Shown piece by piece: positions 5,436-63,016 of a stretch of 64,000 nucleotides of DNA. A program made the position numbers and the translations under genes. Numbering within the stretch: the stretch's first letter is position 1; every line of letters starts with the position of its first letter. The DNA comes from Candidatus Hydrogenedentales bacterium. Lineage in GTDB: Bacteria > Hydrogenedentota > Hydrogenedentia > Hydrogenedentales > GCA-2746185. The DNA lies in NCBI GenBank assembly GCA_038916785.1, contig JBCLBO010000002.1, positions 21,085 through 85,084 on the forward strand, given 5' to 3'. The notes below the pieces were generated by a model, which worked only from the letters and a program-made list of their open reading frames with translations, did no database searches and was not told the DNA's origin.

Positions 5436-5838
5436 CGGTCAATCGCCTCGATCCGCGCAAAACAGGGGCACGGTAGCCGTTTAACCATTCCGGTTCAACT
5501 CCCCTGGTGAAGCGCATTTCACATCAGGTAACAAAGAAAAACAACGAATCGATTGAACAGTCATTGTGAGTTCCGTCCTTTGGCGGCATCGGCGTCCAGC
5601 CGATGGAGAATGCGCCGGAATCTTCGCTTCCCGCCGAATACTGGTCCTCGTATCTAAAAGCATCTTAACCTAACCCAATACTCGTAGCATGGGCGGCCCG
5701 CCCATGCGGGTTCATGGCAGCCGGAGTCGGGTATCGTTAGAAGCTCTAAGAGCGAAGGCCCGCCCCGCATGGGCCGGAAGTCCATGCTACCAAGACCCCG
5801 CGCCTCATTCCCTCCGCGTGGGCCGGGCTTAATTCTCT

Positions 5839-25682: not shown

Positions 25683-26012
25683 GCCACGGATTAGACGGAT
25701 TGAACGGATCAGTCTAATCCCGGGTTCGGGTTGCCGTGTCATTCCCTTGTAAAAAACGGCTCCAATTTTCGGCTACTTTATTTTAAGGGCGTCTAACAAA
25801 CCCCAGCGTTCGTAGCATGGGCGGCTCGCCCATGCGGGTGCATGCCAGCCGTGTCGGGTATTTTGTCAGATGCTCTAAGGAATGATTGATAAATCCGAAC
25901 AGCAATCGTGTCCCTGGGCTTGCGAATGTCGGGGTTTATCAGTGTCCATTGGTGGTCAAAAGCCCTGCATATTCGGGTGAAGTTAATCCGTTCAATCCGT
26001 CTAATCCGTGGC
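25683..26012. repeat. Inverted pair of 28-nt triple-ATCCGT arms enclosing a 274-bp core
   Basis: GCCACGGATTAGACGGATTGAACGGATC (25683-25710) matches the reverse complement of AATCCGTTCAATCCGTCTAATCCGTGGC (25985-12) at 27 of 28 positions; the second arm spans 25985-26012. The core carries a GTAGCATGGGCGG..CGCCCATGCGGG hairpin unit (25812-25838). The right arm overruns the menE stop. Confidence 0.85.
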
Positions 26013-31766: not shown

Positions 31767-32020
31767 GGCCCGATCATACACGTTCGTTCCTCCAACGGAT
31801 TTGAAACAGTATAGGTGGAGCCGCGTAGAAGTGCGATCCAAATGAAAACTGAAGGAAGTCGGGTGAACGTAGTAGCGTTTGTTAACAGTTTTGCTCGAAG
31901 CCCCCCGCACAAGCGTACGGATTGACATACAGGGCACAGTAATGTACAGTTAGATCGCGGTTGAGAGGGCCTCCTAACGGTTCGCTGGACGCAAGTCCAC
32001 TCGGCTGCATTGAATTCCCC

Positions 32021-42201: not shown

Positions 42202-42672
42202 GTCTCGATCACTCCAATTTCGATCACGCGATTCACGGGCGGCGCGCACGTCGTCCACACCACCATGATCCTTTGCCCCGGAGGGGCATCCGACAGTAGC
42301 CCGCCGTTTCAACGGCGGGTAAGGACCGAGACAATTTCCAGTCCCGTAGGGACGGCTGAACCCGCGATTCCTCCGGCTCAGCCGTCCCTACAGGACTCCA
42401 GATTTTGAAGTGGCCCTGACCCGGCGATGAATCGCCGGGCTATTGTCAATTGTCCCTCCGGGACAATCAAGAATGCGCACTCGGCGCCAGACCAGACCGC
42501 GTAGACAGCGTTTCTTCCTGCGGCATCCCGAAGATCGGACTTGATCGTGACCGACGCCTCCGACACAAAAAGCCACCCCTAAGCTTTCGCCTAGAGGTGG
42601 CGCCTAGTCCTCACTCTATAGATCGTCGGCGATGTCAACGCATGGGCGGGCCGCCCATGCTACGTCGCGGTC

Positions 42673-42710: not shown

Positions 42711-43367
42711 TCACTCTGCGGTCTTCTTCGGATACTTCGCGTCTTCCTGGACTTCGATGATCTGTTTGCTGTGGCGCACGGTGTGCAGCGGCACATACAG
42801 CAGCCAATCGTAGGCGCTCAGCCAGTTGAAAATCGGGAAGGGATGCTCGAAGGTGTGGTTCTTCATTTCGCGCGGCATCGTCTCGATATACGCGCGCACC
42901 TCGCCATGGATTGTGTAGAACTCCTGAATCGTCCGCGCGCGGTCCCAGTGTTCCGTCGGGCGGATTTCCATCGGCGCCTGCGCCCCGCCCACGCCGCCGG
43001 GGTTGCGGTTCGGCATGACTTGCCGGAGGAAAGCCGCCTTGTTCTTCGTGCGCGTGTACCACTCGGGGTCCGGCGCGCCCTTCATCGCGTTCAGCGCGTA
43101 GTCGAACAGCGCGCGCTCCGAGCGCACAATGTGCTCGGCGCATTCGCCCACCGACCAGCGGTCCGCGTTTTGCTTGAAGGCCCACTGCTCGTCCGACAGT
43201 CCCGAGATGAGCCCCAGCAGCATGTGCTGGGCGTCGTCCATCTGCTTGACCAGATCGGCGAATTCCGGGTCGGTCAAGTAGGGGCTGGGCGCGTCCTCCG
43301 CGGCGGCCATCGCGCCGGGAACCAGCGCCAGAACCATTGCCACTAGAAACACAGTCTTCCGAATCAT
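42711..43367 (-). CDS. Secreted DinB-family protein
   Basis: Signal peptide, then the DinB four-helix pattern (W..K....RWSVGECAEHIVRSE ... VPLHTVRHSKQI). Confidence 0.8.
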   Translation of the reverse strand: MIRKTVFLVAMVLALVPGAMAAAEDAPSPYLTDPEFADLVKQMDDAQHMLLGLISGLSDEQWAFKQNADRWSVGECAEHIVRSERALFDYALNAMKGAPDPEWYTRTKNKAAFLRQVMPNRNPGGVGGAQAPMEIRPTEHWDRARTIQEFYTIHGEVRAYIETMPREMKNHTFEHPFPIFNWLSAYDWLLYVPLHTVRHSKQIIEVQEDAKYPKKTAE

Positions 43368-43397
43368 GCGGGATTTTTCCTCGAGTCTCTTGTCGCG

Positions 43398-44069
43398 TTA
43401 TTCGGCGGCGGCGCCGGCCGCCGCGGCCTTCTTCGGATACTTCGCGTCTTGTTGCACTTCAACGATTTGCTTGCTGTGCCGCACGACATGCAGCGTGAGC
43501 AGGTTCAGCCAATCGTAGCCGTTGATCCAGCCGATCTGCGGCGCGGGATGCTGCGAGGTGTGGTCTTTGATGTCGCGGTTCATCGTCTCCACGAAAGCGC
43601 GCACTTCGCCATGCGCCTTGTAGAACTCCTGGATCGCGTGCGCGCGGTCCCAGTTCTCCGTCGGCCGGATTTCCGCCGGCGCCTGCACGCCGCCCTGGCC
43701 CTGCGGCCCGCGGCTGGGCACCACTTGGCGCAAGAGGTCTATTTTGCCGTTCGTGCGCGTGAACCACTCCGGGTCGCGCGGGCTGGCGATGACCTGTTTG
43801 GCCAGTTCGAGGAGCGCCTTCTCCGAGCGCGCGATGTGCTCGACGCATTCGCCCACCGACCAGCGGTCCGGGTTCTGCTTGAAATTCCACTGCTCGTCCG
43901 ACAGCCCGGTGATGAGACCCATCACGGTGTTCTGCGCGTCATCGATCAGCTTCACGAGTTCGCCGTATTCGGCGTCCGTCACATACGGCTTCGGCGCGTC
44001 CTCCGCGAAGGCCCGGCCGAGTGCCAGGCACCCCAAGATCGCCCCAATGAATAAAGTCTGCTTCCTCAT
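43398..44069 (-). CDS. Secreted DinB-family protein (paralog of 42711-43367)
   Basis: Collinear similarity to the adjacent gene (AEDAPKPYVTDAEYGELVKLIDDAQ...RWSVGECVEHIARSE...LHVVRHSKQIVEVQQDAKYPKK). Confidence 0.8.
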   Translation of the reverse strand: MRKQTLFIGAILGCLALGRAFAEDAPKPYVTDAEYGELVKLIDDAQNTVMGLITGLSDEQWNFKQNPDRWSVGECVEHIARSEKALLELAKQVIASPRDPEWFTRTNGKIDLLRQVVPSRGPQGQGGVQAPAEIRPTENWDRAHAIQEFYKAHGEVRAFVETMNRDIKDHTSQHPAPQIGWINGYDWLNLLTLHVVRHSKQIVEVQQDAKYPKKAAAAGAAAE

Positions 44070-47742: not shown

Positions 47743-47998
47743 CCTGCGGGACCGGTGCGGCGCCCTTGTGAAAATCGGGGTGTCCGGCGATAATGAGGGA
47801 TGACGTGGCTTTGATGAAGCCTTCGGAGCCGTTGGTTGTGACTCTTCGCAATGGGGTGCGAACTGGCTCCGGAATCAGCGGGATTCGATTTACCGGCAAC
47901 GTAGTGAATGGCACTTTAATCGAGGACGCTTACATCTATCGGTCGACCTGAGTCAGTTCCCCGTCGCGGAACTGCAACGTCGCGTTCGGCCTTTCGCT

Positions 47999-48191
47999 CT
48001 AAATAGCCGGTGATCAATCTGAGACACTGGTGTGTTCTCCACGCCGGAACCTTCACTTTTGTCATTCTGAGCGGTAGCGAAGAATCTCCCCGCCGGTCCG
48101 CCGAAAGACATACCCTGATCTGGCCGCAACGGGCCCAGCGCGATCTATTTCTGCACAGTGAAGTGATCCAGGTATACCACCGGCTATTTAG
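47999..48191 (+). mobile_element. 193-bp MITE-like element, copy 1
   Basis: Terminal inverted repeats CTAAATAGCCGGTG (47999-48012) and CACCGGCTATTTAG (48178-48191). It has no coding capacity and appears identical to the reverse complement of 62604-62796. TA is present at both junctions. Confidence 0.8.
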
Positions 48192-48261
48192 ATGAGAAGC
48201 ATGATCTGAGATGGCTTCGGCTTGCGTGTCTCGGCGTTCCTTGCGTACTCTGTTCAATCGT

Positions 48262-49422
48262 ATGCGCGACGATTTTCATAACGAACTCGACCGGCTCGAC
48301 GCCGAGGGACTGCGGCGCCGGTTGCACGCCTTGCCCGAAGCGGGCGGACTGCTCGAGATCGACGGCCGGCCCGTGATCAATTTCTCGTCGAACGACTACC
48401 TGGATCTCGCGAACGACCCGCGTCTCAAGCGCGCGGGACAAGAGGCCATCGAGCGCTTCGGCTCCGGCGCGACGGCCTCGCGGCTGATGACCGGCCACCT
48501 GGACCTGCACGAGACGCTCGAGGCGCAACTCGCGGCGCTCACGCATCACGAGGCCGCGCTCGTGTTTCCCAGCGGATACCAGGCGAACGTAGGCGCGTTG
48601 CAGGCGCTCGCAGGCCCCGGCGACGCGATTTTTTCCGACGCGCTCAACCACGCGAGCCTGGTGGACGGCTGCCGCCTATCGCGCGCGCAGGTCCATATAT
48701 ATAGGCACGCGGATGTTGCCCACCTCGCAGCGCTGCTCCGCACCTGTGACACGCCGGGCCGCCGCATCGTGATCACGGACGCGGTCTTTAGCATGGACGG
48801 CGACCTCGCCCCGCTGCGCGAAGTAGCGGAGGCCGCGCATGCGCACGACGCGTTCCTCTATGTCGACGAAGCGCACGGCTTCGGCATCTACGGCGCAGGC
48901 GCGGGACTCAGCGCCGAATTCGGCGTGAAGCCAGACGCGATCTCGGCCAATCTCGCCAAGGCCCTCGGCGGCGGCGGCGGATTCGTCGCCGGTTCGGCGG
49001 AGTTCATCGATCTGCTCGTGAACCGCGCGCGCAGCTTTATCTTCTCCACTGGGCTCGCGCCGGCTTGCGTGGGCGCGGGGATCGAGGCCGCGCGCATCGT
49101 GATGACCGAGCCGGGCCTCGGCGCGGAATTGCTCGCGCGCGCCGCGTTCTTCCGCGCGGAGCTGCGGCGCGCGGGCGTCGACGTGCCCGATCACCGCTCC
49201 GCCATCATCCCGATCATCGTCGGGTCGAACGAAACGGCATTGGCACTCTCCGACGCACTCTTCGAGCGCGGCATCCTCGAGACCGCCATCCGTCCGCCTT
49301 CGGTCCCCTACGGCACCGCGCGCCTGCGCCTCTCGGTCACGCTCGCGCACACCCGCGACGACCTCGCGCGCGCGGCGCAGACCATCGCGGAGGTGCTGCA
49401 CGCCGCGAAGGTCAAGAACTGA
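48262..49422 (+). CDS. bioF: 8-amino-7-oxononanoate synthase
   Basis: Start chosen at [12 protein letters not shown] (the ORF opens at 48211). Motifs: [21 protein letters not shown], and the PLP-lysine region [11 protein letters not shown]. Confidence 0.9.
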
Positions 49423-49426
49423 TTCA

Positions 49427-49644
49427 CCACGAAGGACACGAAGGACACGAAGAAACCACCAAACACCGTCGTTACGAGGAGCACCCCCTGCATCGTCATG
49501 CGAGGAGCGCGGTTGCGACGAAGCAATCTCTTCGGCCCGCGCCCGCGCGATCGTGATGTTGCCAGACCGCAAGATTGCTTCGTCGCTCCGCTCCTCGCAA
49601 TGACGATGTTGAGGCCCCCTTCGCGTTCTTCGTGTCCTTCGTGG
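49427..49644. repeat. Nested palindrome with 9-nt-periodic arms (CACGAAGGA type) inside the bio operon
   Basis: Outer arms: CCACGAAGGACACGAAGGACACGAAGAA (49427-54) and TTCTTCGTGTCCTTCGTGG (49626-44). Inner arms: 49495-49530 and 49571-49604 (GTCATGCGAGGAGCG..GCGACGAAGCAATCTC and its complement). Confidence 0.8.
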
Positions 49645-49701
49645 TTCAATAGTCCCGATCCCAATTCATCCTCATTCACCTGTGGCTGATTGTTGCCCTC
49701 A

Positions 49702-50430
49702 ATGACTTCGCGCGGCTACTTCATCACCGGCACGGACACCGGCGTCGGCAAGACGGCGGTGACCGCCGCGATCCTGCGCCTGCTGCGCGCGCGGGGGGTG
49801 AACGCGGCGACGATGAAGCCGGTGCAAACCGGCGCGGTCCTGTGCGACGGCATGTGGATGGCGCCGGACCTCGCGCTGCACCACGCCGGCGCGGGGTTCC
49901 GGCCGCCGGTCGAGCATATCCGGCTCATGCAGCCGTATTGCTACGAGCCCGCGTGTTCGCCACATCTCGCCGGGCGCATGGCGGGACACTATCCCGAACT
50001 CGCGCAGATCGAGGCGAACGCGCGGCAACTTCTCCATCTATACGATATCCTGTTGCTCGAGGGCGCGGGCGGCATTTACGCGCCGCTCACGGAGACCGAA
50101 ACGACGCTCGATCTCATGCGGCGGCTGGCGATGCCGGTGATCCTCGTGGCTCGGCGCGGGCTGGGCACCATCAACCACACGCTGCTGTCGCTCGATGTCT
50201 TGCGGCGCGCGGGCTTGAGCGTGGCGGGCGTCATTTTCAATGAAACGGAGAACGTGCCCGTGGACTTCATCCGCGCGGACAACCCGCGCGCGATCGAGGC
50301 TTTCGGCAAGGTCCCGATATTGGGTAACATGGACCACTTGCCCGGATTCGACGCGGATCCGGGCAAGGCGTTGCGCGGTTCCGAACGATTTTTCCCGGGG
50401 CTCGCGACGATTTTTCCCGAACTGGGATGA
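49702..50430 (+). CDS. bioD: Dethiobiotin synthetase
   Basis: Start at MTSRGYFITGTDTGVGKT (P-loop). LLEGAGG follows. Confidence 0.9.
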   Translation: MTSRGYFITGTDTGVGKTAVTAAILRLLRARGVNAATMKPVQTGAVLCDGMWMAPDLALHHAGAGFRPPVEHIRLMQPYCYEPACSPHLAGRMAGHYPELAQIEANARQLLHLYDILLLEGAGGIYAPLTETETTLDLMRRLAMPVILVARRGLGTINHTLLSLDVLRRAGLSVAGVIFNETENVPVDFIRADNPRAIEAFGKVPILGNMDHLPGFDADPGKALRGSERFFPGLATIFPELG

Positions 50431-51755
50431 AGCCGATGGCGATTCACACGGACACGCTGCAAGACCTGGACTATCGCCACTTGTGGCATCCCTACACCGG
50501 CGCGAACGCCTACGAGGCGGCGCCGTGGACCTGTTTCGAGCGGGGCGAAGGCGTGTACTTGTACGACCGCGAGGGCCGCGCGGTGCTCGACGGCATTGCG
50601 TCCTGGTGGGCGGTCGCGCTGGGGCACAGTCATCCCCGGATCGTCGCCGCGATCCGCGCGCAGGCGGGCGTGCTGCAGCACGCGATCCTCGGCAATCAGA
50701 CGCATCCGCTCGCGGTGAAACTCGCCGCGCGCCTCGCGCAGATGACCCCGGCGGGCCTGACGCGCTGCTATTTCGCCTCCGATGGCGCAAGCGCGACCGA
50801 AGCCGCGCTGAAAATCGCGATCCAGTATTGGCACAACAAAGGCGTGCGCGGGAAAACCCGCTTCGTCGCGCTCGACGAGGGCTACCACGGCGACACGCTC
50901 GGCGCGGTCGGCGTCGGCTTCGTGCCGAGCTTTCATGCGCCCTTCGACGGTGCGGTCGTGAAGTCCTTCGTCGCGCCCACGCCGCACCGCGCGGGCAATC
51001 CCGACGATGGCGCGGACCGCGCGCACGCGCTCGAAGCCTTCGCGGCGATGGAGCGGATCGTCGACGAGCACGAATCGGCGATTGCGGGAATCATCCTCGA
51101 ACCGCTCTGCCAGGGCGCGGCGGGCATCCGCATCTATCACCCCGAATACCTGCGCCGCGTGCGCGCACTGTGCGACGCGCGCGGGCTGCTGCTGATTGCC
51201 GACGAGATCGCGGTCGGCTTCGGCCGCACGGGCGGCGTGTTTGCCTGCGACGTCGCCGGCATCGCGCCCGATATCCTGTGCATGGGCAAGGCGCTGACGG
51301 GCGGCACGCTGCCGATGAGCGCCGCGATCGTCACCGACGCGATCTACGACACCTTCCGCAGCGAGCCTGGCCGCGACCGCACCTTCTACGACGGCCACAC
51401 CTTCTGCGGCAACCCGATCACGAGCGCGGCCGCGCTCGCCTTCCTCGACGCCTTCGAGCAGGAGCGCGTGATGGACAAGGTCGCCGCGCGCGCGCCGCAG
51501 CTGGCTGAGGGCATGGCCCGCCTCGCGCGAAATTCTGCCGTGCACTTTCATAAATCGCTCGGGATGATCGGCATGGTCGCGCTCACGGCGGAGTCCGGCG
51601 GCCCCGCGCTCGCCCAGCAGATCGCGCGACGCGCGCTCGATGGCGGCCTTTTCATCCGCCCGCTGGGAAGTGTGCTGTACCTCTGGCCGCCGCTGAGCAC
51701 CACCGAATCCGAACTGGATCGAATGCTCGAACTATTCGCGCGCGCAATGCCGTAG
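50427..51755 (+). CDS. bioA: Adenosylmethionine-8-amino-7-oxononanoate aminotransferase
   Basis: LWHPYT, the DEIAVGFGRTG motif, and the PLP lysine in CMGKALTGG. It overlaps the bioD stop (ATGA). Confidence 0.95.
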   Translation: MKPMAIHTDTLQDLDYRHLWHPYTGANAYEAAPWTCFERGEGVYLYDREGRAVLDGIASWWAVALGHSHPRIVAAIRAQAGVLQHAILGNQTHPLAVKLAARLAQMTPAGLTRCYFASDGASATEAALKIAIQYWHNKGVRGKTRFVALDEGYHGDTLGAVGVGFVPSFHAPFDGAVVKSFVAPTPHRAGNPDDGADRAHALEAFAAMERIVDEHESAIAGIILEPLCQGAAGIRIYHPEYLRRVRALCDARGLLLIADEIAVGFGRTGGVFACDVAGIAPDILCMGKALTGGTLPMSAAIVTDAIYDTFRSEPGRDRTFYDGHTFCGNPITSAAALAFLDAFEQERVMDKVAARAPQLAEGMARLARNSAVHFHKSLGMIGMVALTAESGGPALAQQIARRALDGGLFIRPLGSVLYLWPPLSTTESELDRMLELFARAMP

Positions 51756-52528
51756 GGGCGACCCTCCCAACCGCGCGCCCGCAGATGACACCGATAGACA
51801 CAGCGGACCCCTGTCGACTCTGGTCGCGGCGGGCGTCCTCGCCCGCGTGTGTTTGAGGTGAAGTCGCGCCCGGTGGTCTCTCCAGGTTCCCTCTATATGT
51901 ATGCGCGTCTTGTTGCACTCGGGGAAAGTGCGGGTGCGAAACAAGGGGCGGTCGAACACTACTCTCGAGATTTCAGAGTTGAGATTTCGGAACTCTTAGT
52001 CGGGACGGGGCTTGGCGGTTCAGCATGTAGCGCGACGGCGAAGCGGCGGGACGCCGCTTCCACTATAGCTGCAGTTGCTAAACAAGGGAGAAGGATGTTT
52101 TATTGTTTTTAGCAGCGATAAATTCCATAAGACCTAGATCCCTTTGCTTCCCGGTCCATGCTGACGGGTGAGTCCGCGTGCTATCGAGGGCAACGCACGT
52201 GGCCGCGATTTCCTCATCCCCTAGAGCATTTTAACAAATCTATCGATACGATCGGGACCAGACTCCTTTCATTTTTATTGCGGTTATCGGTGTCCATCTG
52301 TATCTATCGGTGGATAATTTGCTCTAGCCTCCTTTTCCGGAGACCCGAGACTGCCAAATCTCTACCCTTACCAATGGGCTCCTTCACGGGGGAGGCATCG
52401 ATCGGACTCCACGTTACTAGAGATGACTCGTGTCGATGGTGCCCTCCACCGCTATGAATGAAACGGGGCCTCGTGAATGTTCACGATCGATTTGTTGCGA
52501 CGTGCGGAAGTCTTCGGCGGGGACGAGA

Positions 52529-55456
52529 TCAGGTCGCCGTCGAACATGCTGCCCCGCACTCGAGGGCCGATCCGAGGCGCTCGACTGGCGGTAGAAGCAC
52601 ATGGACGGCGCCGTCTTCGAGTTTCACTTTGAAGACCTGTATGCGCAGATCGCCTCCGGAAAGGCACCGGCCGGACTCGAGCGAGAACTGCTTCTTGTGT
52701 TGCGGGCAGGCGACTTTGGGTTCGCCTGCCTTGTCGCCGAGGAGGCCGCGGGCAAGGACCATGTCGCGTTTGTGGGGGCAGAGGTTTTGCGTGGCGTACC
52801 ACTCGCCGCGCCGGGAAAAGTTGAACACGGCGATCTGCGCGTTCCCGTATTCCACGGCGATACCGCGGCCTTCGGGGAAGTCGGCGATTTCGCCGGCCCT
52901 CCACCACGCGGCGCCGCCGTTCGTGGCGTCTGCAATCGCCGGATCGGGCATCTGCGGCCGATCGGCCGGCCGTTTCTGTCCGCGCTCGCGCACGAAGCGG
53001 AGATCGGGATCGGGGGCGGGGGTGCCGGCGAAATGTTTGAAGAGGGCGCGTTTGACGGGATTCTCGACCACGGCCTTCCATTCGCAGGCGTAGGTAGCGA
53101 CGAGTTTGGCCATGTCCGCTTCGAGCGTTTCGCAAATTCGGAGCGAATCATTTACGACAACCTGTCTGAGGTGCTCGATCCCTCCTTCGAGCTTCTCGAG
53201 CCAGACCGAAGTGCGCGTGAGCGGATCGGCCGTGAGGATGTAGTACATGAGCAGGCGGTCCATAAACCGGATCGCAGTCTCTTCGTCTACGTCGGCGGCG
53301 AGCAGATCGGCGTGGCGCGGCCTGGCGCCGCCGTTTCCGCAGACGTAGAGGTTCCAGCCTTTTTCCGTGGCCACGAGGCCGACGTCTTTGCTCTGCGCCT
53401 CGGCGCATTCACGGACGCAGCCCGACACGGCGAACTTCAGTTTGTGCGGCGCGCGGATGCCCCGGTAGCGCTCTTCGATGCGAATGGCGAAGGCGGTAGA
53501 GTCCTGGACGCCGTAGCGGCACCAGGTCTGCCCGACGCAGCTTTTCACCGTGCGCACGGCCTTACCGTAGGCATGTCCGCTCTCGAATCCGGCGGCGATG
53601 AGCGCCTCCCAGATTTCGGGCAACTGGCCGACCCGCGCGCCGAGGAGGTCGATTCGCTGGCCGCCGGTGATTTTGCAGTAGAGGTCGTATTTCTTGGCGA
53701 TCGTGCCCAGGGCGATGAGTTTCTCGGGGGTAATCTCGCCACCGGGCACTCGCGGGACGATCGAATAGGAACCGCCCCGCTGGATGTTCGCCAGGAAGCG
53801 ATCGTTGGTGTCCTGAATCTCCGTCTGCTCGATGATGGGCGCGTTCCACAGGCTCGCGAGGATGGAAGCGACTACGGGTTTGCATACTTCGCAGCCGTCG
53901 CCCGTGCCGAGGGCGTCGAGCGCCTCGTCGAAGGTTTTCACGCGGCGGATTTTCACGGCGTGCAGGAGGTCCTTGCGCGACATCGCGAAGTGTTCGCATA
54001 CCGTGTTTTTCTGCAAGATGCCTAGCGCCTTCAACTCAGTCTTGAGAATTTCTTTGACGAGCGGCAGGCAGCCGCCGCATCCAGTGCCCGCCTGGGTGCA
54101 TGCCTGGAGCGCACCGAGTTCGTGCGTGCCGTCGCGGATGCGTGCGCGGATCGTCCCCTTGCCGACGTTGTGACAGGAGCACACGGGGGCCGCATCGGAC
54201 AGGAGGCCGGCCGCGGCCCCCGGCGCGTTCGCGTCGAAGAGACTCGCCACGGGGACGCCGAGCGGATCGCCGGTGCGGGCGTGGTGCGCGAGGAGCTCGA
54301 ACGCGGACACGTCGCCGACGAGAATTCCCCCGATCACGCGGCGCCCGTCCTCGCCGAGCACGACTTTGGAGTAGACGCCCTTCGCCGGGTCCTTGTGTTC
54401 GAAGACTTGCTGCGACTCGCCACTGGCGAAGGGATCGCCTACGCTGGCGACGTCCACCCCGAGCAGCTTGAGTTTGGTAGACAGATCGCTACCGTTGAAC
54501 GTCGCCTCGCCGCCCGCCAGGCGGCGGGCCAGTGTCTCGGCCATCTGGTAGCCGGGCGCGACCAGGCCGTACACTATGCCGCGGTGACACGCGACCTCGC
54601 CGATCGCGTGAATGGACGGGTCGCTCGATTCGAGCGCGTCGTTCACCACGACGCCGCCGCGCGCGCCGATTTCGAGGCCGCAGGCGCGCGCGAGTTCGTC
54701 CCGCGGCTGAATGCCTGCCGAGACCACCACCATGTCTACGTGGAGTATCTCGCCGCCGGCAAAGCGCAGGCCGGTGACCGCGCCATTTCCGGTGACGGCC
54801 TCTGTGGAATGATTCACACGCACCTTCACGCCGCGGCGTTCGATTTCGCGCGCGAGATACGAGCCGCCCGTTTCGTCCAACTGCCGAGGCATGAGCCGCT
54901 CGGCCCGCTCGACCACGTGAGTATCCAGTCCCAGGTCCTGCACGGCCTTGGCCGCTTCCAGGCCGAGCAAGCCGCCGCCGATGACGGCCGCGGATCGGCA
55001 CTGGGACGCATAGGCGATGATCGCATCGAGATCGTCGAGGGTGCGGTAAAGGAAAACTCCTTTTCGGTCGATTCCCTCTGTGGGCGGGACGAATGGCCGC
55101 GAGCCCGTGGCAAGCACGAGACGACCATACCGGAGGGAGCGGCCGGAGTCCGTGAAGACTTCCTTCGCGGCGCGATCGATGCGGGCCACGCGTTCTCCGA
55201 GCAACAGATCGATGCCGTGATCGCTATACCACTGCGGCGCGGCCAGCAGGAGCCGCTCGGCGCTGCGCTCGAGGAAATAGCTGGTCAACCGGACGCGGTC
55301 GTAGGCCGGCCAGCGCTCCTCCCCGATCACGGTGATGCGGATACGGTGGGCGGCGTCGAGGTCGCGGAGCGCTGCGCAAAAACGGTGGCTGGCCATGCCA
55401 TTGCCAACGACCAGCACATCGGTTTCCGCAGACTGTGTCGAGACCGGTGGCATCAC
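52529..55456 (-). CDS. nirB: NAD(P)H-dependent assimilatory nitrite reductase, NirB large subunit fused to a NirD-like small subunit
   Basis: N-terminal FAD/NAD fold (VLVVGNGMASHRF). BFD-like 2Fe-2S (CSCHNV...CGGC). Siroheme/4Fe-4S region (SCVGQTWCRYG ... SGCVRECAEAQ). C-terminal Rieske-like NirD (GEWYATQNLCPHKRDMVLARG...CPQHKKQF). Confidence 0.9.
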   Translation of the reverse strand: MMPPVSTQSAETDVLVVGNGMASHRFCAALRDLDAAHRIRITVIGEERWPAYDRVRLTSYFLERSAERLLLAAPQWYSDHGIDLLLGERVARIDRAAKEVFTDSGRSLRYGRLVLATGSRPFVPPTEGIDRKGVFLYRTLDDLDAIIAYASQCRSAAVIGGGLLGLEAAKAVQDLGLDTHVVERAERLMPRQLDETGGSYLAREIERRGVKVRVNHSTEAVTGNGAVTGLRFAGGEILHVDMVVVSAGIQPRDELARACGLEIGARGGVVVNDALESSDPSIHAIGEVACHRGIVYGLVAPGYQMAETLARRLAGGEATFNGSDLSTKLKLLGVDVASVGDPFASGESQQVFEHKDPAKGVYSKVVLGEDGRRVIGGILVGDVSAFELLAHHARTGDPLGVPVASLFDANAPGAAAGLLSDAAPVCSCHNVGKGTIRARIRDGTHELGALQACTQAGTGCGGCLPLVKEILKTELKALGILQKNTVCEHFAMSRKDLLHAVKIRRVKTFDEALDALGTGDGCEVCKPVVASILASLWNAPIIEQTEIQDTNDRFLANIQRGGSYSIVPRVPGGEITPEKLIALGTIAKKYDLYCKITGGQRIDLLGARVGQLPEIWEALIAAGFESGHAYGKAVRTVKSCVGQTWCRYGVQDSTAFAIRIEERYRGIRAPHKLKFAVSGCVRECAEAQSKDVGLVATEKGWNLYVCGNGGARPRHADLLAADVDEETAIRFMDRLLMYYILTADPLTRTSVWLEKLEGGIEHLRQVVVNDSLRICETLEADMAKLVATYACEWKAVVENPVKRALFKHFAGTPAPDPDLRFVRERGQKRPADRPQMPDPAIADATNGGAAWWRAGEIADFPEGRGIAVEYGNAQIAVFNFSRRGEWYATQNLCPHKRDMVLARGLLGDKAGEPKVACPQHKKQFSLESGRCLSGGDLRIQVFKVKLEDGAVHVLLPPVERLGSALECGAACSTAT

Positions 55457-55484
55457 CCACGCTCCAGGGATTACTTACGCAAAG

Positions 55485-55500
55485 AGCAATCGTCGTACCA
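55485..55500 (-). promoter_or_regulatory. Putative sigma-54 (-24/-12) promoter for nirBD
   Basis: The minus strand reads TGGTAC-N5-TTGCT (consensus TGGCAC-N5-TTGCW), about 30 nt upstream of the nirB ATG, with GGAG between. Confidence 0.4.
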
Positions 55501-55774
55501 CCGCGGGAACGAGCCTGATCGGGATCCGGGAATTCAGCGATACGCCCGTAAAGCGCAAGTCCAAGACCGGTCAATTTGTTAAAATAGCCGTAAATATGGA
55601 GTTGAGTTGATACTGAAATGTTGAATATCTACATTTTAGTTACGGATTAGTAGTATATCGCTCCAGTCGTGCGATGCTGTTTTGGTGTCTCCGCGACTCG
55701 CTCGAACCCTCCTCCTCCCATTTTCTGACGGCCGAATCGCAGGAACACTTGTTTATACGTAGTAGGAATATGTC

Positions 55775-55790
55775 TGGCACGCTTTCTGCT
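55775..55790 (+). promoter_or_regulatory. Putative sigma-54 (-24/-12) promoter for narK-nasA
   Basis: TGGCAC-GCTTT-CTGCT has correct GG/GC spacing and lies 54 nt upstream of the narK ATG. Confidence 0.5.
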
Positions 55791-55843
55791 TTCGGAGGAT
55801 TCACTCGCGGTGACTTTCACAGAAGTTCGGAGAGCCATGAACA

Positions 55844-57193
55844 ATGTATAGCCGGAACAAGGCGACGCGAATACAGCTTTTCTCGCTCGGCACGATTCAG
55901 ATGAGGACCTTCCATCTGACCTGGCTGGCTTTTTTCTTGTGCTTCATCGCGTGGTTCGGGATTGCGCCGCTGATGCCGATCATTCGAGAGGAGTTCCACC
56001 TTACCAAGGCGCAGATCGGCAACACGATCATCGCATCCGTGGCGGCGACGATTCTCGCGCGCTTGATCTGCGGGTGGTGCTGCGATCGCTTTGGACCCCG
56101 GCGGACCTATGCGTGGCTGTTGATGCTGGGTGCGATTCCGGTGATGGGTATCGGACTCGCGCATGACTATCCGACCTTTCTGCTTTTTCGACTGGGCATC
56201 AGTGTGATCGGCGCATCGTTCGTGGTTACTCAGTTCCACACCACCATGATGTTTGCGCCCAATTGCGTGGGGACTGCCAACGCCACCACGGCGGGCTGGG
56301 GCAATCTGGGCGGCGGCGTGACGCAGATGATCATGCCTGTTGTTTTCAGCGGCTTCGTCGCCTTGGGACTGAGCGCGCACGGCGGATGGCGCGCCGCGAT
56401 GTTCGTGAGCGGGCTGATTTGTTTCGTGATGGGCATCGTCTACTACCTCTTCACGCGGGACACTCCCGATGGCGACTTCCGCGATCTGCGCGCCTCGGGG
56501 CGGATGTCCGAGGCGAAGGCGAACAAGGGCGCGTTTCTCGAGGCCTGCCGGGACCCGCGCGTGTGGGCGTTGTTCCTCGTGTACGGGGCGAGCTTCGGCG
56601 TGGAAATCACACTGGACAACGTGGCGGCTTTGTATTTCGTCGACTATTTCGACCTCGGCATTCACAGCGCCGGCGCCGTGGCGGCGAGTTTCGGCCTGCT
56701 CAACCTCTTCGCGCGGACCTTGGGGGGAGTATTCGGGGATCGCTGCGGCCGGCGGTGGGGGCTGAAAGGCCGCGTGCGCTGGTTGGCGGTGGTGCTGGTG
56801 GCGGAGGCCGTGGCGCTCATGGTTTTCTCGCGGATGACGATGCTTCCGCTGGCCATCGCCGCGATGCTCGTGTTCGGGCTGTTCGTGTGCATGGGCTGCG
56901 GCGCGACCTTTGCCGTGACGCCCTTTATCAACAAGCGCGCGATTGGGCCGGTGGCCGGGATCGTCGGCGCGGGCGGAAATGTGGGCGCGCTACTCTCGGG
57001 ATTCCTATTCAGGATGGAGGCGCTGGACTGGCCCCAGGCCTTCCTCATCCTTGGAGGCGTCGTGTTGGTGTGCTCCGGATTCACGGCGTTCGTCCGCTTT
57101 TCTCCGCAGGACGAAGCCAGCGCGAAGCGGGAGATCGAAGAGCGGATGGTCGCGACGCCGCAGCCGCAGCCGGCCCTGGCTACCTCGCGGTAG
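55844..57193 (+). CDS. narK: MFS nitrate/nitrite transporter (NarK/NrtP type)
   Basis: 12-TM MFS. N-terminal LFSLGTIQMRTFHLTWLAFFLCFIAWFGIAPLMP and the nitrate-signature-like GWGNLGGG / GAGGNVG motifs. Confidence 0.9.
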   Translation: MYSRNKATRIQLFSLGTIQMRTFHLTWLAFFLCFIAWFGIAPLMPIIREEFHLTKAQIGNTIIASVAATILARLICGWCCDRFGPRRTYAWLLMLGAIPVMGIGLAHDYPTFLLFRLGISVIGASFVVTQFHTTMMFAPNCVGTANATTAGWGNLGGGVTQMIMPVVFSGFVALGLSAHGGWRAAMFVSGLICFVMGIVYYLFTRDTPDGDFRDLRASGRMSEAKANKGAFLEACRDPRVWALFLVYGASFGVEITLDNVAALYFVDYFDLGIHSAGAVAASFGLLNLFARTLGGVFGDRCGRRWGLKGRVRWLAVVLVAEAVALMVFSRMTMLPLAIAAMLVFGLFVCMGCGATFAVTPFINKRAIGPVAGIVGAGGNVGALLSGFLFRMEALDWPQAFLILGGVVLVCSGFTAFVRFSPQDEASAKREIEERMVATPQPQPALATSR

Positions 57194-57205
57194 GATTCGC
57201 CGCCT

Positions 57206-60200
57206 ATGACGATGACCACCGGCCTCACTCAGAGCGTGAGCACCACGTGCAGCTATTGCGGCGTGGGGTGCGGCGTGCGCGTGCGGCGTGACGGCGCGGG
57301 GCGGCTCCAGCTCGACGGGGATCCCGATCATCCCTCGAGCCACGGGATGCTGTGCTCGAAAGGGCGCGCGCTGCATCACGTCGTGCAGGACACGCGCGAC
57401 CGGCTGCTGTATCCGCAGATGCGGCGCAGCCGCGGGCACCCGCTGGAACGGGTGGATTGGGACTCGGCATTGACGCGCGCGGCGGCCGCGTTCAAGTCAA
57501 TCATCGCGCGCTACGGTCCGGAGGCCGTGGGATTCTACGTCTCCGGACAGTGCCTCACGGAGGAATACTACGTCGCAAACAAGCTGATGAAGGGATTCAT
57601 CGGCTGCAACAATATAGACACGAATTCGCGCTTGTGCATGAGTTCGGCGGTGGTGGGTTACACGCTGGCGCTGGGAGACGACCTGTGCCCGATGAGTTAC
57701 GACGACATTGAGCACGGCGACTGCTTCCTGATCGCCGGGGCCAATCCGGCGTTCTGCCATCCGATATTGTTCCGCCGTCTGGAGATCCATAAACAGGCGC
57801 GGCCCGGCGCGCGCGTTATCGTCGCCGACCCGCGCAGGACGCAGAGCTGCGAACTGGCCGACTTGCATCTCCAGCTCCAGCCCGGCACGGACGTCGCCCT
57901 CTTCAACGCGATTGCCCGGGAGTTGATCGAGCGCGAGGCCATCGACAAAGGTTTCATCGACGCCCACACGGCCGGCTTCGAGCGGCTGCGCGAGTCGGCG
58001 ATGGCGCTCACGCTCTCCGAGGCGGCGGCGATTTGCCGGCTCCGCGCGGACGACATCCGCACCGCGGCCGCGTGGATCGGCGAAGCGAAGGCCTTCCAGA
58101 CGTGGTGGGCCATGGGGCTCAATCAGAGCTCCGTGGGCGTGGACAAGAACGTCGCACTTCTAAATTTGTCCTTGCTCACCGGCCAGATCGGCAAGCCGGG
58201 CGCGGGGCCATTCTCGCTGACGGGCCAGCCCAACGCGATGGGCGGACGCGAGGTGGGCGGGCTGGCCACCACGCTGGCGGCGCACCGCGACCTGGCGAAC
58301 CCGGACCACCGGGCGGAAGTCGCGCGCTACTGGGGCGTGCCGCGGGTCTCCGAGAAACCCGGCCTGACCGCGACCGAAATGTTCGACGCGCTGGACAGCG
58401 GCCGGATGCGGGCCATCTGGATTGTCAACACGAATCCCGCGGTGTCCTTGCCCGATCTGAATCGAGTGGAGCGCGCCTTGCTCGCTTCGCGGTTTGTGGT
58501 GGTGCAGGAGATTTCGTCGCTCTCGGACACGGTCGCGTTCGCCGACCTGGTATTGCCGGCCGCCGGCTGGCTCGAGAAGGAAGGGACGATGACCAACTCC
58601 GAGCGCCGGGTGGGCTTGGTGCGTAAACTGGTGGACGCCCCCGGCGAGGCACTTCCGGACGCCGAGATTTTGTGCCGCTTCGCGGAGAAGATGGGTTGGG
58701 GCGCTTCGTTTGCCTACGCATCGCCGGAGGCGATTTTCCGCGAGCACGCTGCGCTGACCCGCGGCACTCCCATCGATATGAGCGGCATCACGTATCGGCG
58801 GCTGCGCGCGGAGGGCCCGCTCCAGTGGCCCTGTCCGTCGGAAGACCACCCGGGCACGCCGCGCCTCTTCGTCGACGGCAAGTTCGCCACCGCGGATGGC
58901 CGTGCGCGGCTGCACAGTGTTTCGTATGAGGCCCCGCTGGAGACCGTGACGGACCGCCTGCCCTATGTGCTGACGACGGGGCGCCTGCGCGATCAGTGGC
59001 ACACGATGACCCGCACGGGCAAAGTGAACAAGCTGCGCAGCCATGAGCCTGAGCCGTTTGTAGAGGTCCATCCGGACGACGCCGCGGAGCAGGGCCTCTC
59101 GGACGGAAGCACGGCGCGGATCGAAAACGATCGCGGCGAAGTGCTCGCCCGCGTGCGGTGTACGGACACGATCAAGCGGGGCACCGTCTTCCTGCCGATG
59201 CACTGGGGCAAAGCACTGCAGAGCGGCCGTGCGCGGACGAACCTCGTCACCAATCCGCGGGTGGACCCGCGATCGCGCCAGCCGGACTTCAAGTTTGCCG
59301 CCGTGAGGTTGGCGCCGGTGCCGCGCGTGCCGCGCCGGATTGTAGTCATCGGCGCGGGCGCGGCGGCGCTTCAGTTCATTTCGGTCTACTGCGAGAAAAA
59401 TCGCGACGATCGGATCACGGTCCTCGGCAACGAGCCCGAGGGTTTTTACGATCGAATTCGTCTGCCGGACTATCTCGCGCTCAAGATAAGTTGGCCCGAA
59501 ATGCTTAGGGACTCGGGCGCTCCGGCCGGTGGCGGTGTGGAAGTGCGGGCGGGTGTTTCGGCGCTGCGCATCGATCGAGAGAACAAACAGGTCGTCGACA
59601 GTTTCGGGATCGCGCACGCCTACGACGCGCTCCTCGTCGCCACCGGAAGCCACGCGGCCCCCGCCGTGAGCACGCCCGCCGGGATGCAGGGGATTTACAC
59701 GCTTCGTTCGCGCGCCGATGCCGACGCGATTCGGGCCGCGGCCGCGCCGGGCGCGCGCGCGGTGGTGCTGGGCGGCGGCCTGCTCGGTGTTGAGGTCGCC
59801 GCCGCGCTGCGCGGGCTTGGCCTGAGCGTGACGTTGCTGCATCGCTCGTCGCGCCTGATGAATGCGCAACTGGACGAGACGGCCGCGGGGATTTTGCGCG
59901 CGGACCTGGCCGATCGGGGCATCGACGTCGTCACACAGGACACCATCGCCCGCGCGCACGGAACGGCCCAGGTGCGCGGCGTCACGACGACGGGAGGGTT
60001 GTATCTGCCGTGCGACCTTCTGGTGTGCGCGATTGGCACGCGGGCAAACGACGAACTCGCGCGCGCGGCGGGCCTGCGCTGCGGCGACGGCGTGATCGTG
60101 GACGACGCGATGCGCGCCAGCGATCCCGACATCTTCGCCATTGGCGAGGTGGCCGAACACAAGGGCCAGCGGCACGGGACGACCCTGGCGGCGCAGCAGC

Positions 60201-60727
60201 AGGCGGATGTCGCCGCGGCGCAACTGAACGGCGCGGTGTGGACGCGTTACGCGGGCAGCGTTCCGGTCCACGTGGTCAAAGTGCCCGGGCTGGCGCTGGC
60301 GGCGCTCGGGAGCACGGCCGCGCCGCCGAATTCGACCGATACCTACGAAGAGATCGTCATGGACGATCGCGCGGAGCGGCTGTATCTCAAATGCATGGTG
60401 CATCGAAACCGCCTGGTCGGCGCGATCATGGCCGGAGACCTCTCGCGGCTGCCGCAGTTCAAGGCGTGGATCGAAAGCGGCATCGAACTCGACGGCGAGC
60501 GGCGAAATCTGCTCCGGTTGCGCGCGGAGTCGCCGGCGGCGGCCCCCCGGGGGCGGCTGGTCTGCGCGTGTTGTCAGGTGGGCGAGGAAAATCTGCGCGA
60601 CGCCATCGCCGGGGGCTGCGCGAATCTCGGCACGCTGGGCGAATCCACCGGCGCAGGGACTGGGTGCGGCAGTTGCCTGCCCGAACTCCGCGGACTGCTG
60701 CGGCGATGCGCGGCGGTACCGGTATGA
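57206..60727 (+). CDS. nasA: Assimilatory nitrate reductase: molybdopterin catalytic domain fused to an NAD(P)H-flavin reductase and a BFD-like 2Fe-2S module
   Basis: N-terminal 4Fe-4S motif CSYCGVGCG...C, then the molybdopterin oxidoreductase body. From about residue 710, a pyridine-nucleotide-disulfide reductase fold (IVVIGAGAAALQF..., AVVLGGGLLGVE) is followed by C-terminal CACCQV...CGSC. Confidence 0.9.
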   Translation: MTMTTGLTQSVSTTCSYCGVGCGVRVRRDGAGRLQLDGDPDHPSSHGMLCSKGRALHHVVQDTRDRLLYPQMRRSRGHPLERVDWDSALTRAAAAFKSIIARYGPEAVGFYVSGQCLTEEYYVANKLMKGFIGCNNIDTNSRLCMSSAVVGYTLALGDDLCPMSYDDIEHGDCFLIAGANPAFCHPILFRRLEIHKQARPGARVIVADPRRTQSCELADLHLQLQPGTDVALFNAIARELIEREAIDKGFIDAHTAGFERLRESAMALTLSEAAAICRLRADDIRTAAAWIGEAKAFQTWWAMGLNQSSVGVDKNVALLNLSLLTGQIGKPGAGPFSLTGQPNAMGGREVGGLATTLAAHRDLANPDHRAEVARYWGVPRVSEKPGLTATEMFDALDSGRMRAIWIVNTNPAVSLPDLNRVERALLASRFVVVQEISSLSDTVAFADLVLPAAGWLEKEGTMTNSERRVGLVRKLVDAPGEALPDAEILCRFAEKMGWGASFAYASPEAIFREHAALTRGTPIDMSGITYRRLRAEGPLQWPCPSEDHPGTPRLFVDGKFATADGRARLHSVSYEAPLETVTDRLPYVLTTGRLRDQWHTMTRTGKVNKLRSHEPEPFVEVHPDDAAEQGLSDGSTARIENDRGEVLARVRCTDTIKRGTVFLPMHWGKALQSGRARTNLVTNPRVDPRSRQPDFKFAAVRLAPVPRVPRRIVVIGAGAAALQFISVYCEKNRDDRITVLGNEPEGFYDRIRLPDYLALKISWPEMLRDSGAPAGGGVEVRAGVSALRIDRENKQVVDSFGIAHAYDALLVATGSHAAPAVSTPAGMQGIYTLRSRADADAIRAAAAPGARAVVLGGGLLGVEVAAALRGLGLSVTLLHRSSRLMNAQLDETAAGILRADLADRGIDVVTQDTIARAHGTAQVRGVTTTGGLYLPCDLLVCAIGTRANDELARAAGLRCGDGVIVDDAMRASDPDIFAIGEVAEHKGQRHGTTLAAQQQADVAAAQLNGAVWTRYAGSVPVHVVKVPGLALAALGSTAAPPNSTDTYEEIVMDDRAERLYLKCMVHRNRLVGAIMAGDLSRLPQFKAWIESGIELDGERRNLLRLRAESPAAAPRGRLVCACCQVGEENLRDAIAGGCANLGTLGESTGAGTGCGSCLPELRGLLRRCAAVPV

Positions 60728-62133
60728 AGAGCGGTCCAGAGATCGTCGCGTACCAGACGCGCGGGGGCCTGCTCTCGCTGGCTGAATTGCGATTGCTGGC
60801 CGAGGCGGCCACGGCCCAGGGTGACCCGCGGCTATTCGCCGTCGGGCGGCAGGAGATTGCTCTGAGCGGGCTCGGTTTCGCGCAGGCTATGCGGCTGCTG
60901 GGTCAGCCGGGCGGCCACATCCTGCAACCGTGGTCACCAACGCGGCCGGCGAACATCATGACGACGGGCCCCGTGGCCGGTCTCGACGGCACGAATCCTT
61001 GGCTGAGCGCTGGAGCGTTCCGGGACCTCCTCGAAAGCTTTCGGTTTGCGCCGAGGCGTTCGATCGCGTTGACCGATCCGTCGCAGGCGTATCTTCCCGC
61101 ATTTCTCGGCGAGATCAATTTTCTCGCGACGGATCAGCGGGACCAGTGGAGAATCCGGCTGGCGCTGCGCGAGTTTGGTGAGGAGTCGCTGCTGCCGGGA
61201 GCGATCCGCTCTCTCGACATTCCCAATGCCGTGGCGATCATCGAGAACTACGCCGACGCCGCGGCGCCGGGCAGCGATCCCTCCGAGTCCACGCGCGCGC
61301 TCACCGAGGCCCTTGAGCCTATTGGATTGCCGGCGCCGGCTTTCTCGTTTCCCAGCGTCAGCCGCTACCGGTGCCCTGCTGGCGCGCTGGTCATTCCGAT
61401 TCCGGAGGAGGGCATCCGCAGCGATTTCTGCCTCGACCTGTGCGTGTGGGCTGCGCGCCTGCCGGGGATTTCCGTGGGCCTGACCCCGTGGCGCACATTC
61501 CTGGTTCGGGGGCTCTCCGAGAGTGCAACGCGCGAACTCCGGGGCCTGTTGATTCGCCGCTGCGTGGCTGAAACCTGCGGCCCGTGGCGGCCGCATTTTT
61601 TGAATTCGCTGTCCGAAGACGGCGCCGAATGGCTGTGCCGTGCGGTGGAAGCCCGGTGTCCAGTGGACGCCGGCCTATCGATTGGCGTGGTCCCGGCGGA
61701 CGCCCCGGCGCCGGACCTACACGTGCTCGTGCGTGAGGGGCCGCGCACATCGCGATGGGGCCGCCTACGCCCCACGCGGTACTCCGTGCAACGCCGCAGT
61801 TCGTACGATGCGCGAAACGCTCCATGGACCCTTGTCGCGGCAGACATTCGACGGCGCGATCTGGGTAGCGTGGTCTTGCAGGCGATCGACATGCTCACGG
61901 GCCCGCCGCAATTGAGAGCGAACAACGAGGCAATGCCCATGGAAAATGTGGCGCCCGATTCCGCCGGATCCGCACTCCGGTGCCGATCCTGCCTCAATGA
62001 GTATGACGCGATCTACGGAGATTCCGCGGGCCGGATCGCGCCAGGGACCCCCTTCCGTCTGCTGTCCGAAGACTGGGGTTGCCCGGTGTGCGGCGGCCCA
62101 AAATCGGACTACGAAGCCGCCGCCGTCGCGTGA
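60724..62133 (+). CDS. Uncharacterised protein with C-terminal rubredoxin domain (possible nitrite/sulfite-reductase-ferredoxin-like N-terminus)
   Basis: The ATG overlaps the nasA stop (ATGA). The C-terminus RCRSCLNEYD...PGTPFRLLSEDWGCPVCGGPKSDY is a canonical rubredoxin CxxC...CxxC knuckle pair. The N-terminus GGLLSLAELRLLAEAA...RQEIALSGL loosely recalls the NiR/SiR ferredoxin-like half-domain. Confidence 0.65.
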   Translation: MKSGPEIVAYQTRGGLLSLAELRLLAEAATAQGDPRLFAVGRQEIALSGLGFAQAMRLLGQPGGHILQPWSPTRPANIMTTGPVAGLDGTNPWLSAGAFRDLLESFRFAPRRSIALTDPSQAYLPAFLGEINFLATDQRDQWRIRLALREFGEESLLPGAIRSLDIPNAVAIIENYADAAAPGSDPSESTRALTEALEPIGLPAPAFSFPSVSRYRCPAGALVIPIPEEGIRSDFCLDLCVWAARLPGISVGLTPWRTFLVRGLSESATRELRGLLIRRCVAETCGPWRPHFLNSLSEDGAEWLCRAVEARCPVDAGLSIGVVPADAPAPDLHVLVREGPRTSRWGRLRPTRYSVQRRSSYDARNAPWTLVAADIRRRDLGSVVLQAIDMLTGPPQLRANNEAMPMENVAPDSAGSALRCRSCLNEYDAIYGDSAGRIAPGTPFRLLSEDWGCPVCGGPKSDYEAAAVA

Positions 62134-62603
62134 CCAATGGGGTCGTCATTCGGGTCCTAAAATAGGATCGGCAGAGCCGGTGAAAAAGCCGATCTCGTTT
62201 GTCTGTTGTAGTCGCGGCGATAATGGTGGATTCAAAGTCTACGTGCAACAACTCCGTGATTAGAAGCGGTACTTCGCGGCCTATCCAAGCCGAAGGCTTG
62301 ACAGAAAGTAGCCAGTGGTCGCCGCAGCGCGGCGACCACCGGGTAGCGAAAAAAGCCGAAGCACCCTGGAGGGGGGGGTGCCAGAAGCCTTATGCATTTT
62401 CTGCGACCCCTCCAGGGTCGGTAGCACTGGCCAGGTATCCGGGGGTGTCGCTGCGCTCAACCCCCGGCTACTCTCTGGCAACTCTTCGAGTTGCACACCA
62501 CTCGAATCCGCCGTGTTCTATGCCTCGCGATCCGCTTAAAGGGCCAAACCCCAGGCAACTCGTCGAGTTGCGCCGGCGTGGCTACAGTTTTTCGACAAAT
62601 GCT

Positions 62604-62796
62604 CTAAATAGCCGGTGGTATACCTGGATCACTTCACTGTGCAGAAATAGATCGCGCTGGGCCCGTTGCGGCCAGATCAGGGTATGTCTTTCGGCGGACC
62701 GGCGGGGAGATTCTTCGCTACCGCTCAGAATGACAAAAGTGAAGGTTCCGGCGTGGAGAACACACCAGTGTCTCAGATTGATCACCGGCTATTTAG
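62604..62796 (-). mobile_element. 193-bp MITE-like element, copy 2 (inverted relative to copy 1)
   Basis: Same TIRs (62604-17 and 62783-96). Reading both sequences, I see no mismatch to the reverse complement of 47999-48191. TA is present at both junctions. Confidence 0.8.
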
Positions 62797-62876: not shown

Positions 62877-63016
62877 GAAAGGGGGTTACGCGACGAGACT
62901 GCTTCGTCGCGATCGCGCTTCTCGGAATGACGGTCAGCGGTTTGTGCGGACGCGCAAGTTGCTAGGGGCCTACATGATATTCTGAGCGTCCGAATCCGTC
63001 CGGGGAGGTCCCATCC

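Follow-up and report, generated by a model that had tools for sequence, protein, structure and literature searches.

Insertion sequences (IS) of the IS630 family insert at TA dinucleotides and duplicate the TA, and for the bacterial member ISY100 TA-duplicating cut-and-paste transposition has been reconstituted in vitro (PMC2170065). For IS630 itself, a preference for TA within 5'-CTAG-3' is stated in the title of Tenzen and Ohtsubo (1991), as cited in PMC2170065. [quoted passage not shown] Here we describe a 187-bp element that occurs as two identical, inverted copies in a 64,000-nt stretch of contig JBCLBO010000002.1 (positions 21,085 to 85,084 of the forward strand; assembly GCA_038916785.1) from a Candidatus Hydrogenedentales bacterium; this stretch is called the window below, and all positions refer to it unless another sequence is named. 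The two copies bracket 14.4 kb of DNA with biotin (bio) and nitrate-assimilation (nas) genes. Our analysis indicates that they are probably copies of a non-autonomous DNA transposon, a MITE, that inserts at TA within CTAG, was placed at the two sites independently and recently, and is mobilised in trans.

In its working the element resembles RUP, the Correia elements and other TA-flanked bacterial MITEs, and it is new, from an uncultured lineage. RUP is also a small, non-coding, intergenic element with terminal inverted repeats (TIRs) that inserts at TA, and its presumed mobilisation in trans is credited to an IS630-family transposase (PMC2229807). However, RUP is AT-rich, 107 bp long and present in about 100 copies, and its partner IS with matching TIRs is known, whereas the element described here has 187 bp, a GC content of 54% (compared to 63% for the window) and two known copies, and neither the window nor the scanned collections yielded a partner IS. 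The Correia elements of Neisseria are MITEs of 100-160 bp with TA ends that often lie just upstream of genes, form hairpins and can be involved in rearrangements (PMC2229807; PMC10969869). Unlike the present element, in which no promoter-like site was detected and which has no sequence similarity to them, they have characterised promoters, an IHF site and hundreds of copies. IS630 of Shigella sonnei and ISY100 of Synechocystis share the TA duplication (PMC2170065), and the CTAG named in the title of the IS630 study is the sequence at both sites here, but these IS are autonomous elements of about 1 kb that encode a DDE transposase, while the element in the window is devoid of real coding capacity.

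Structure of the repeat pair

A repeat search of the window returned two arms of 194 nt each, 47999-48192 on the plus strand and 62603-62796 on the minus strand, which are 100% complementary, inverted and spaced by 14,410 nt; no second repeat came near this pair in strength. None of the 194 positions differs between the copies. The features of the pair are as follows.

47999 to 48192, + strand: MITE copy 1, maximal identical stretch (from sequence reading, repeat search and empty sites)
Parts of copy 1: C 47999 (target), TA 48000-48001, core 48002-48188, TA 48189-48190, G 48191 (target)
48002 to 48012, + strand: left 11-bp TIR, AATAGCCGGTG, perfect, with imperfect complementarity (about 77%) continuing to about 30 nt
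48178 to 48188, - strand: right 11-bp TIR, reading CACCGGCTATT on the plus strand, perfect
62603 to 62796, - strand: MITE copy 2, reverse complement of copy 1, 100% identical (from sequence reading and repeat search)
Parts of copy 2: core 62607-62793, TA flanks 62605-62606 and 62794-62795, C 62604, G 62796

The A at 48192 matches copy 2 by chance and lies outside copy 1 proper. An earlier sequence-only reading had described a 193-bp identical inverted pair, of which identity and orientation hold while the length is one base greater, and it had assigned 14-bp TIRs to the copies. This second assignment has to be revised, as the empty site described below identifies the true TIR as the 11 bp AATAGCCGGTG and the remainder as TA plus the C or G of the target. 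The terminal 14-mer CTAAATAGCCGGTG occurs exactly four times in the window with up to two mismatches, always at element ends, compared to 0.2 occurrences expected by chance. Similarly, the identical 61-codon pseudo-open reading frames reported for both copies do share 61 identical codons, but the two open reading frames (ORFs) are 61 and 67 codons long, with a stop codon in the flank.

The mobile core of 187 nt is closed by the TIRs and folds into a long hairpin on either strand (z of -4.2 and -5.2), which favours its interpretation as a MITE, since MITEs fold in this way. In addition, the element is smaller than about 500 bp, contains no functional coding sequence and ends in terminal inverted repeats, which is the make-up of a MITE.

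Target site and age of the insertions

Relatives were found by a BioF search, and their contigs were compared with the window. Two of them are sister metagenome-assembled genomes (MAGs): GCA_038916775.1, of which a 20-kb contig is covered by the overlapping stretches L004 and L008, and GCA_038916595.1, represented by L009. Flanking DNA in both is 97-99% identical to the window, which is a third MAG of the same species-level group; the named relatives in the BioF search, about 50-65% identical, are labelled Candidatus Hydrogenedentes.

In both sister MAGs the site of copy 1 is empty and intact, reading CTTTCGCT-CTAG-ATGAG (L004 4340-4356, and L009). Over a longer distance both sisters read CCTTTCGCT-CTAG-ATGAGAAG, while the window reads CCTTTCGCT-C-TA-(AATAGCCGGTG...CACCGGCTATT)-TA-G-ATGAGAAG; in short, GCT-CTAG-ATG became GCT-C-TA-(187 nt)-TA-G-ATG. 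The left match to the empty site stops after CTA and the right match starts at TAG, and because the two overlap by exactly TA, the duplicated target of copy 1 is the 2-bp TA inside CTAG. This comparison proves that copy 1 was inserted within CTAG and that its target, the 2-bp TA, was duplicated, as is characteristic of IS630/Tc1-mariner elements, and the TA duplication that had been proposed from the window alone can be seen directly in the empty sites of two sister genomes.

For copy 2 the flanks on the minus strand read CCGCCG-C-TA...TA-G-AGCATT, which rejoin to CCGCCG-CTAG-AGCATT, so that the target of this copy was probably CTAG as well; its empty site is predicted to read CGCTATCCGCCG-CTAG-AGCATTTGTCG on that strand. 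An empty site for copy 2 was not found, the sole sister contig that reaches so far (L008) diverging at window position 62224 and ending in an IS4-like (IS4/IS5-like) transposase fragment. CTAG is strongly avoided in the window, with 32 occurrences compared to 216 expected from base composition, and only 2.7% of the TA dinucleotides fall within it. Two insertions out of two in CTAG would have a probability of about 7e-4 if TA dinucleotides were used at random, although the sample is very small; with these two sites, the data are consistent with an IS630-like preference for TA in CTAG. The TA duplication at the empty sites of copy 1 and the CTAG at both sites thus support well the earlier assignment of the element to MITEs with an IS630/Tc1-mariner-derived signature.

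Copy 1 is absent from two sister genomes that are about 98% identical (1-3% different around the site), and thus copy 1 at least is young and polymorphic among strains. Moreover, about three differences between the copies would be expected had both predated the split from the sisters, as estimated from the flank divergence of about 1.5-2%. Recent transposition of the copies, as suggested before, is the simplest reading of their complete identity and of the missing copy in such close relatives.

Proposed origin and mobilisation of the element

The element would have been inserted by a cut-and-paste reaction at TA within CTAG with duplication of the TA, as performed by IS630/Tc1-mariner transposases. 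The transposase would be supplied in trans from an autonomous IS located outside the window, which most likely recognises the 11-bp TIRs AATAGCCGGTG. Two separate recent events would have placed the element in intergenic spacers, one between eda and bioF and the other downstream of the gene for a rubredoxin-domain protein, and the bracketing of the bio-nas segment would then be a coincidence of insertion, the segment not being carried by the copies.

Several observations weigh against this explanation. An autonomous IS with these TIRs was not found in the window, and when GTDB representative genomes and JGI metagenomes were scanned with exact 21-nt end patterns, only one chance site, matching CTAAATAGCCGGTGRTMWAYC in a Syntrophobacterales coding region, came up, three times over. 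Only two copies are known, and a search of the window and of about 110 kb of DNA from the relatives turned up no diverged ones. The target of copy 2 is read from its flanks alone. Furthermore, TA duplication is not strictly confined to IS630, as some IS5-family subgroups in ISfinder make 2-4-bp duplications at TA-containing, CTAG-like targets.

Other searches for the element gave no real matches. In the IMG/VR viral collection, a TIR-gap-TIR pattern, an internal 26-mer and a relaxed end pattern returned nothing or one chance coding match, and in the plasmid collection there was no blastn match to the element. Rfam contained no matching family at gathering or permissive thresholds, a partial DUF3800-XI match of 10.8 bits being meaningless. 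No real homologues of the pseudo-ORFs were present among the 5.8 billion and 1.84 billion proteins searched; two weak matches were rejected as chance, since the proteins concerned are unrelated repeat proteins with a length of about 1,100 aa.

The bracketed segment and its counterparts in relatives

Between the copies, Pfam confirmed the gene content given by the sequence-only reading, namely bioF-bioD-bioA, nirBD, narK, nasA and a rubredoxin fusion gene.

48262 to 49422, + strand: bioF (the start, giving 386 aa, taken from relatives)
49690 to 50430, + strand: bioD
50427 to 51755, + strand: bioA
52529 to 55456, - strand: nirBD, a single fused ORF of 975 aa
55844 to 57193, + strand: MFS transporter of the nitrate/nitrite type
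57206 to 60727, + strand: nasA-flavoprotein fusion of 1173 aa
60706 or 60724 to 62133, + strand: protein with a C-terminal rubredoxin domain

The gene for KDPG aldolase (eda) lies to the left of copy 1, and a signal-peptide gene on the plus strand, with an apparent start at 63018 as read from the sequence, lies to the right of copy 2. A 327-aa ORF on the minus strand to the right of copy 2 has no Pfam match and looks spurious.

The sister contig L004/L008 carries an uninterrupted run of eda-bioFDA-nirBD-narK-nasA-rubredoxin in the order and orientation of the window, without copy 1. Hence the segment is older than the MITE, and the pair does not represent what is left of a composite transposon. 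The composite mobilisable unit proposed earlier is contradicted by this contig, in which the segment is present without one of its flanking elements. The same contig answers the question, raised with that proposal, whether the bio and nas genes are adjacent in relatives: they are, in a sister MAG without copy 1. This comes near to the result that the sequence-only reading had named as refuting a composite unit or an inversion, but it concerns copy 1 only. In the relatives L005, L006, L010 and L011 (80-90% BioF identity) eda-bioFDA is kept and other genes follow bioA. The nitrate-assimilation block (52529-62133) follows bioA only in this species-level group, and L005, L010 and L011 have unrelated genes in its place. 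The adjacency of bio and nas genes is thus specific to the group, with its left limit after bioA and not at copy 1. In a profile of base composition the bracketed segment does not stand out as a distinct island, nor is the nitrate-assimilation block marked as foreign.

Alternative explanations

The identity of the copies could also come from gene conversion acting on two old copies, or from an artefact of assembly, given that identity by itself cannot tell a recent insertion from homogenisation and that the sequence comes from a MAG contig. Both are highly improbable, because two genomes with flanks only about 1-3% different lack copy 1, which hence is young, and because an artefact would not yield an exact TA duplication at a CTAG that relatives have in intact form. 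A discrete gene set flanked by identical inverted elements, and the lack of nas genes after bioA in those relatives whose BioF is 80-90% identical, invite a further interpretation: together with the enclosed 14.4 kb, the MITEs would make up a composite transposon, and the bio and nas genes would have been moved as one by an IS630-type transposase acting on its outer ends. IS630-based composite transposons can transpose, to judge from the title of Tenzen and Ohtsubo (1991) as cited in PMC2170065, and mobilisation of MITE-flanked segments is possible (PMC10969869). However, L004/L008 has the whole run from eda to the rubredoxin gene in the same orientation with an untouched CTAG at the site of copy 1, and eda-bioFDA synteny spans this site in all relatives examined, indicating that the left boundary at copy 1 is not an island boundary. 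A composite origin of the bio-nas segment is largely refuted, and we consider it extremely unlikely.

A perfect inverted identity of 194 bp is long enough for homologous recombination, and the pair is thus a possible substrate for an inversion of the 14.4 kb, although no such event was seen. If RecA-type recombination between the copies acted as a switch, both orientations should coexist in the population, and MITEs have indeed been described as recombination hotspots (PMC10969869). Such a switch is nonetheless unlikely here, since only the ancestral orientation is found in the window and L004/L008; the window can be assigned to this orientation from its left-side junctions, which match the MITE-free sister contig. 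Furthermore, an inversion would rewire no obvious promoter, as its breakpoints would fall upstream of the conserved bioF leader. It is also very unlikely that the pair constitutes a functional rearrangement module, in which a matching IS630-type transposase could move a 14.8-kb bio and nas unit as a composite flanked by MITEs, or host recombination flip it, giving strain-level heterogeneity. As to the enzyme, mobilisation by an IS5-superfamily transposase (IS427/IS1031-like or Harbinger-like) instead of IS630 would fit a second small element at 52225-52323, whose GAGCA... ends and CTAG/CTAG flanks are compatible with a 4-bp duplication, and the IS4/IS5-like transposase fragment at the end of the sister contig. 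An IS5 partner is still unlikely for the 187-bp element, because its duplication is exactly the 2-bp TA, the canonical IS630/Tc1-mariner signature (PMC2170065), and because its ends are unlike those of the small GAGCA element. Mobilisation in trans by an IS630-type transposase is consequently the explanation that we prefer.

Position of copy 1 relative to bioF

With the start that all relatives use, bioF begins at 48262 of the window, and copy 1 ends 69-71 nt before this start, in agreement with the earlier estimate of about 70 nt. Directly upstream of the start lies a conserved block.

48219 to 48261, + strand: conserved block, about 43 nt long, in front of the bioF start codon (L005, L011, L004 and L009 compared with the window)

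The block is largely conserved even where BioF is about 90% identical and the eda-bioF spacer measures only 90 nt, and it presumably represents the core promoter or leader of bioF. In the window it is intact, 28 nt downstream of copy 1, and a consensus scan detected no sigma-70-like promoter inside the element. With the block intact and no promoter-like site in the element, the suggestion that copy 1 supplies or disrupts the bioF promoter is unlikely to apply; a regulatory effect of copy 1 on bioF is possible but unsupported.

Other small elements in the region

The interior of the MITE contains a short motif.

48061 to 48086, + strand: internal motif GTCATTCTGAGCGGTAGCGAAGAATC, a variant of a short motif in unrelated intergenic repeats, with variants in L008, L009 and L010

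The motif, GTCAT(T/C)..GAG...GCGA(C)GAAG.A(A)TC, was found at 48061-48086, 49491-49645 and 62896-62931 of the window, at 11632-11673 of L008 and in the eda-bioF spacer of L010; it is hosted by the MITE interior, by a long palindromic element in the bioF-bioD spacer and by other unrelated intergenic repeats. It has no Rfam match, and a literature search gave unrelated primer sequences only. As a side possibility, the short motif GTCATTCTGAGCG..GCGAAGAATC, common to the MITE and unrelated intergenic repeats, might be a functional module that hitch-hikes on mobile elements.

A second MITE-like insertion, at 52221-52327 between bioA and nirBD, has a 99-nt core (52225-52323) with the ends GAGCATTTT.../...AATTTGCTC. 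It has CTAG on both sides, which corresponds to a duplication of TA or of the 4-bp CTAG, and is unrelated to the 187-bp MITE; its empty site, CATCCC-CTAG-CCTCC, is found in the sister contig, and it is present in a single copy in the window. The flank of copy 2 at 62597-62606 on the minus strand reads TAGAGCATTT, the same 10-mer as at both ends of 52225-52323, and the window contains it at these three places only. Copy 2 may have inserted beside a solo end of the 52225-52323 family, for which no partner end was found, or the match may be a coincidence.

At least four insertion/deletion polymorphisms occur in 15 kb between the genomes that are about 98% identical. The sisters have about 670 nt of additional DNA between eda and bioF (L004 3471-4146, mapping to window 47798-47806), with small ORFs of 106 and 133 aa in L004, which have no Pfam match, and of 128 aa in L009. 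The window lacks this stretch, the gap falling between two imperfect 9-nt repeats, and has a 52-aa fusion ORF (47793-47951) as a result. An element of about 963 nt at L004 8108-9083 (window 51937-51948) has 26-bp TIRs, GGGGAATTATCACGTTCGTTCCCTCG, an approximately 11-nt direct repeat, GAAACAAGGGG, and a 235-aa ORF without Pfam match; it is absent from the window and may be a novel small mobile element. A dispersed repeat family with the palindrome GCATGGGCGG(C/G)CCGCCCATGC is located at 5666-5723, 25794-25851 and 42624-42664 of the window and at 11509-11593 of L008, where the copy sits exactly at the point at which the sister contig leaves the window after the rubredoxin gene. Elsewhere in the window, Rfam matches at gathering level comprise a DUF3800-VI RNA at 31958-32007 (51.7 bits) and two Acido-Lenti-1 RNAs in opposite orientations at 42274-42319 and 42420-42465 (39.7 and 44.1 bits). 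Tandem DinB_2/DUF1569 paralogues occupy 42718-44013 as direct repeats D1-D3, with a spacing of 705 nt and 73-84% identity, and relatives have tandem series of four or five of them.

Implications

The element belongs to an ordinary type of mobile DNA that is well understood and is not a gene-carrying unit, and it leaves the understanding of biotin and nitrate metabolism and of transposition unchanged. It does provide a clean case of filled and empty sites for a MITE that targets TA/CTAG and was recently active, in a bacterial lineage that is uncultured and poorly studied, and it is a marker of strain-level variation, whereas the orientation of the 14.4-kb segment that it brackets is an assembly-sensitive feature. 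Moreover, the element predicts that an active IS630-type transposase is encoded in the genome, and several small mobile elements are remodelling the intergenic regions of this species.

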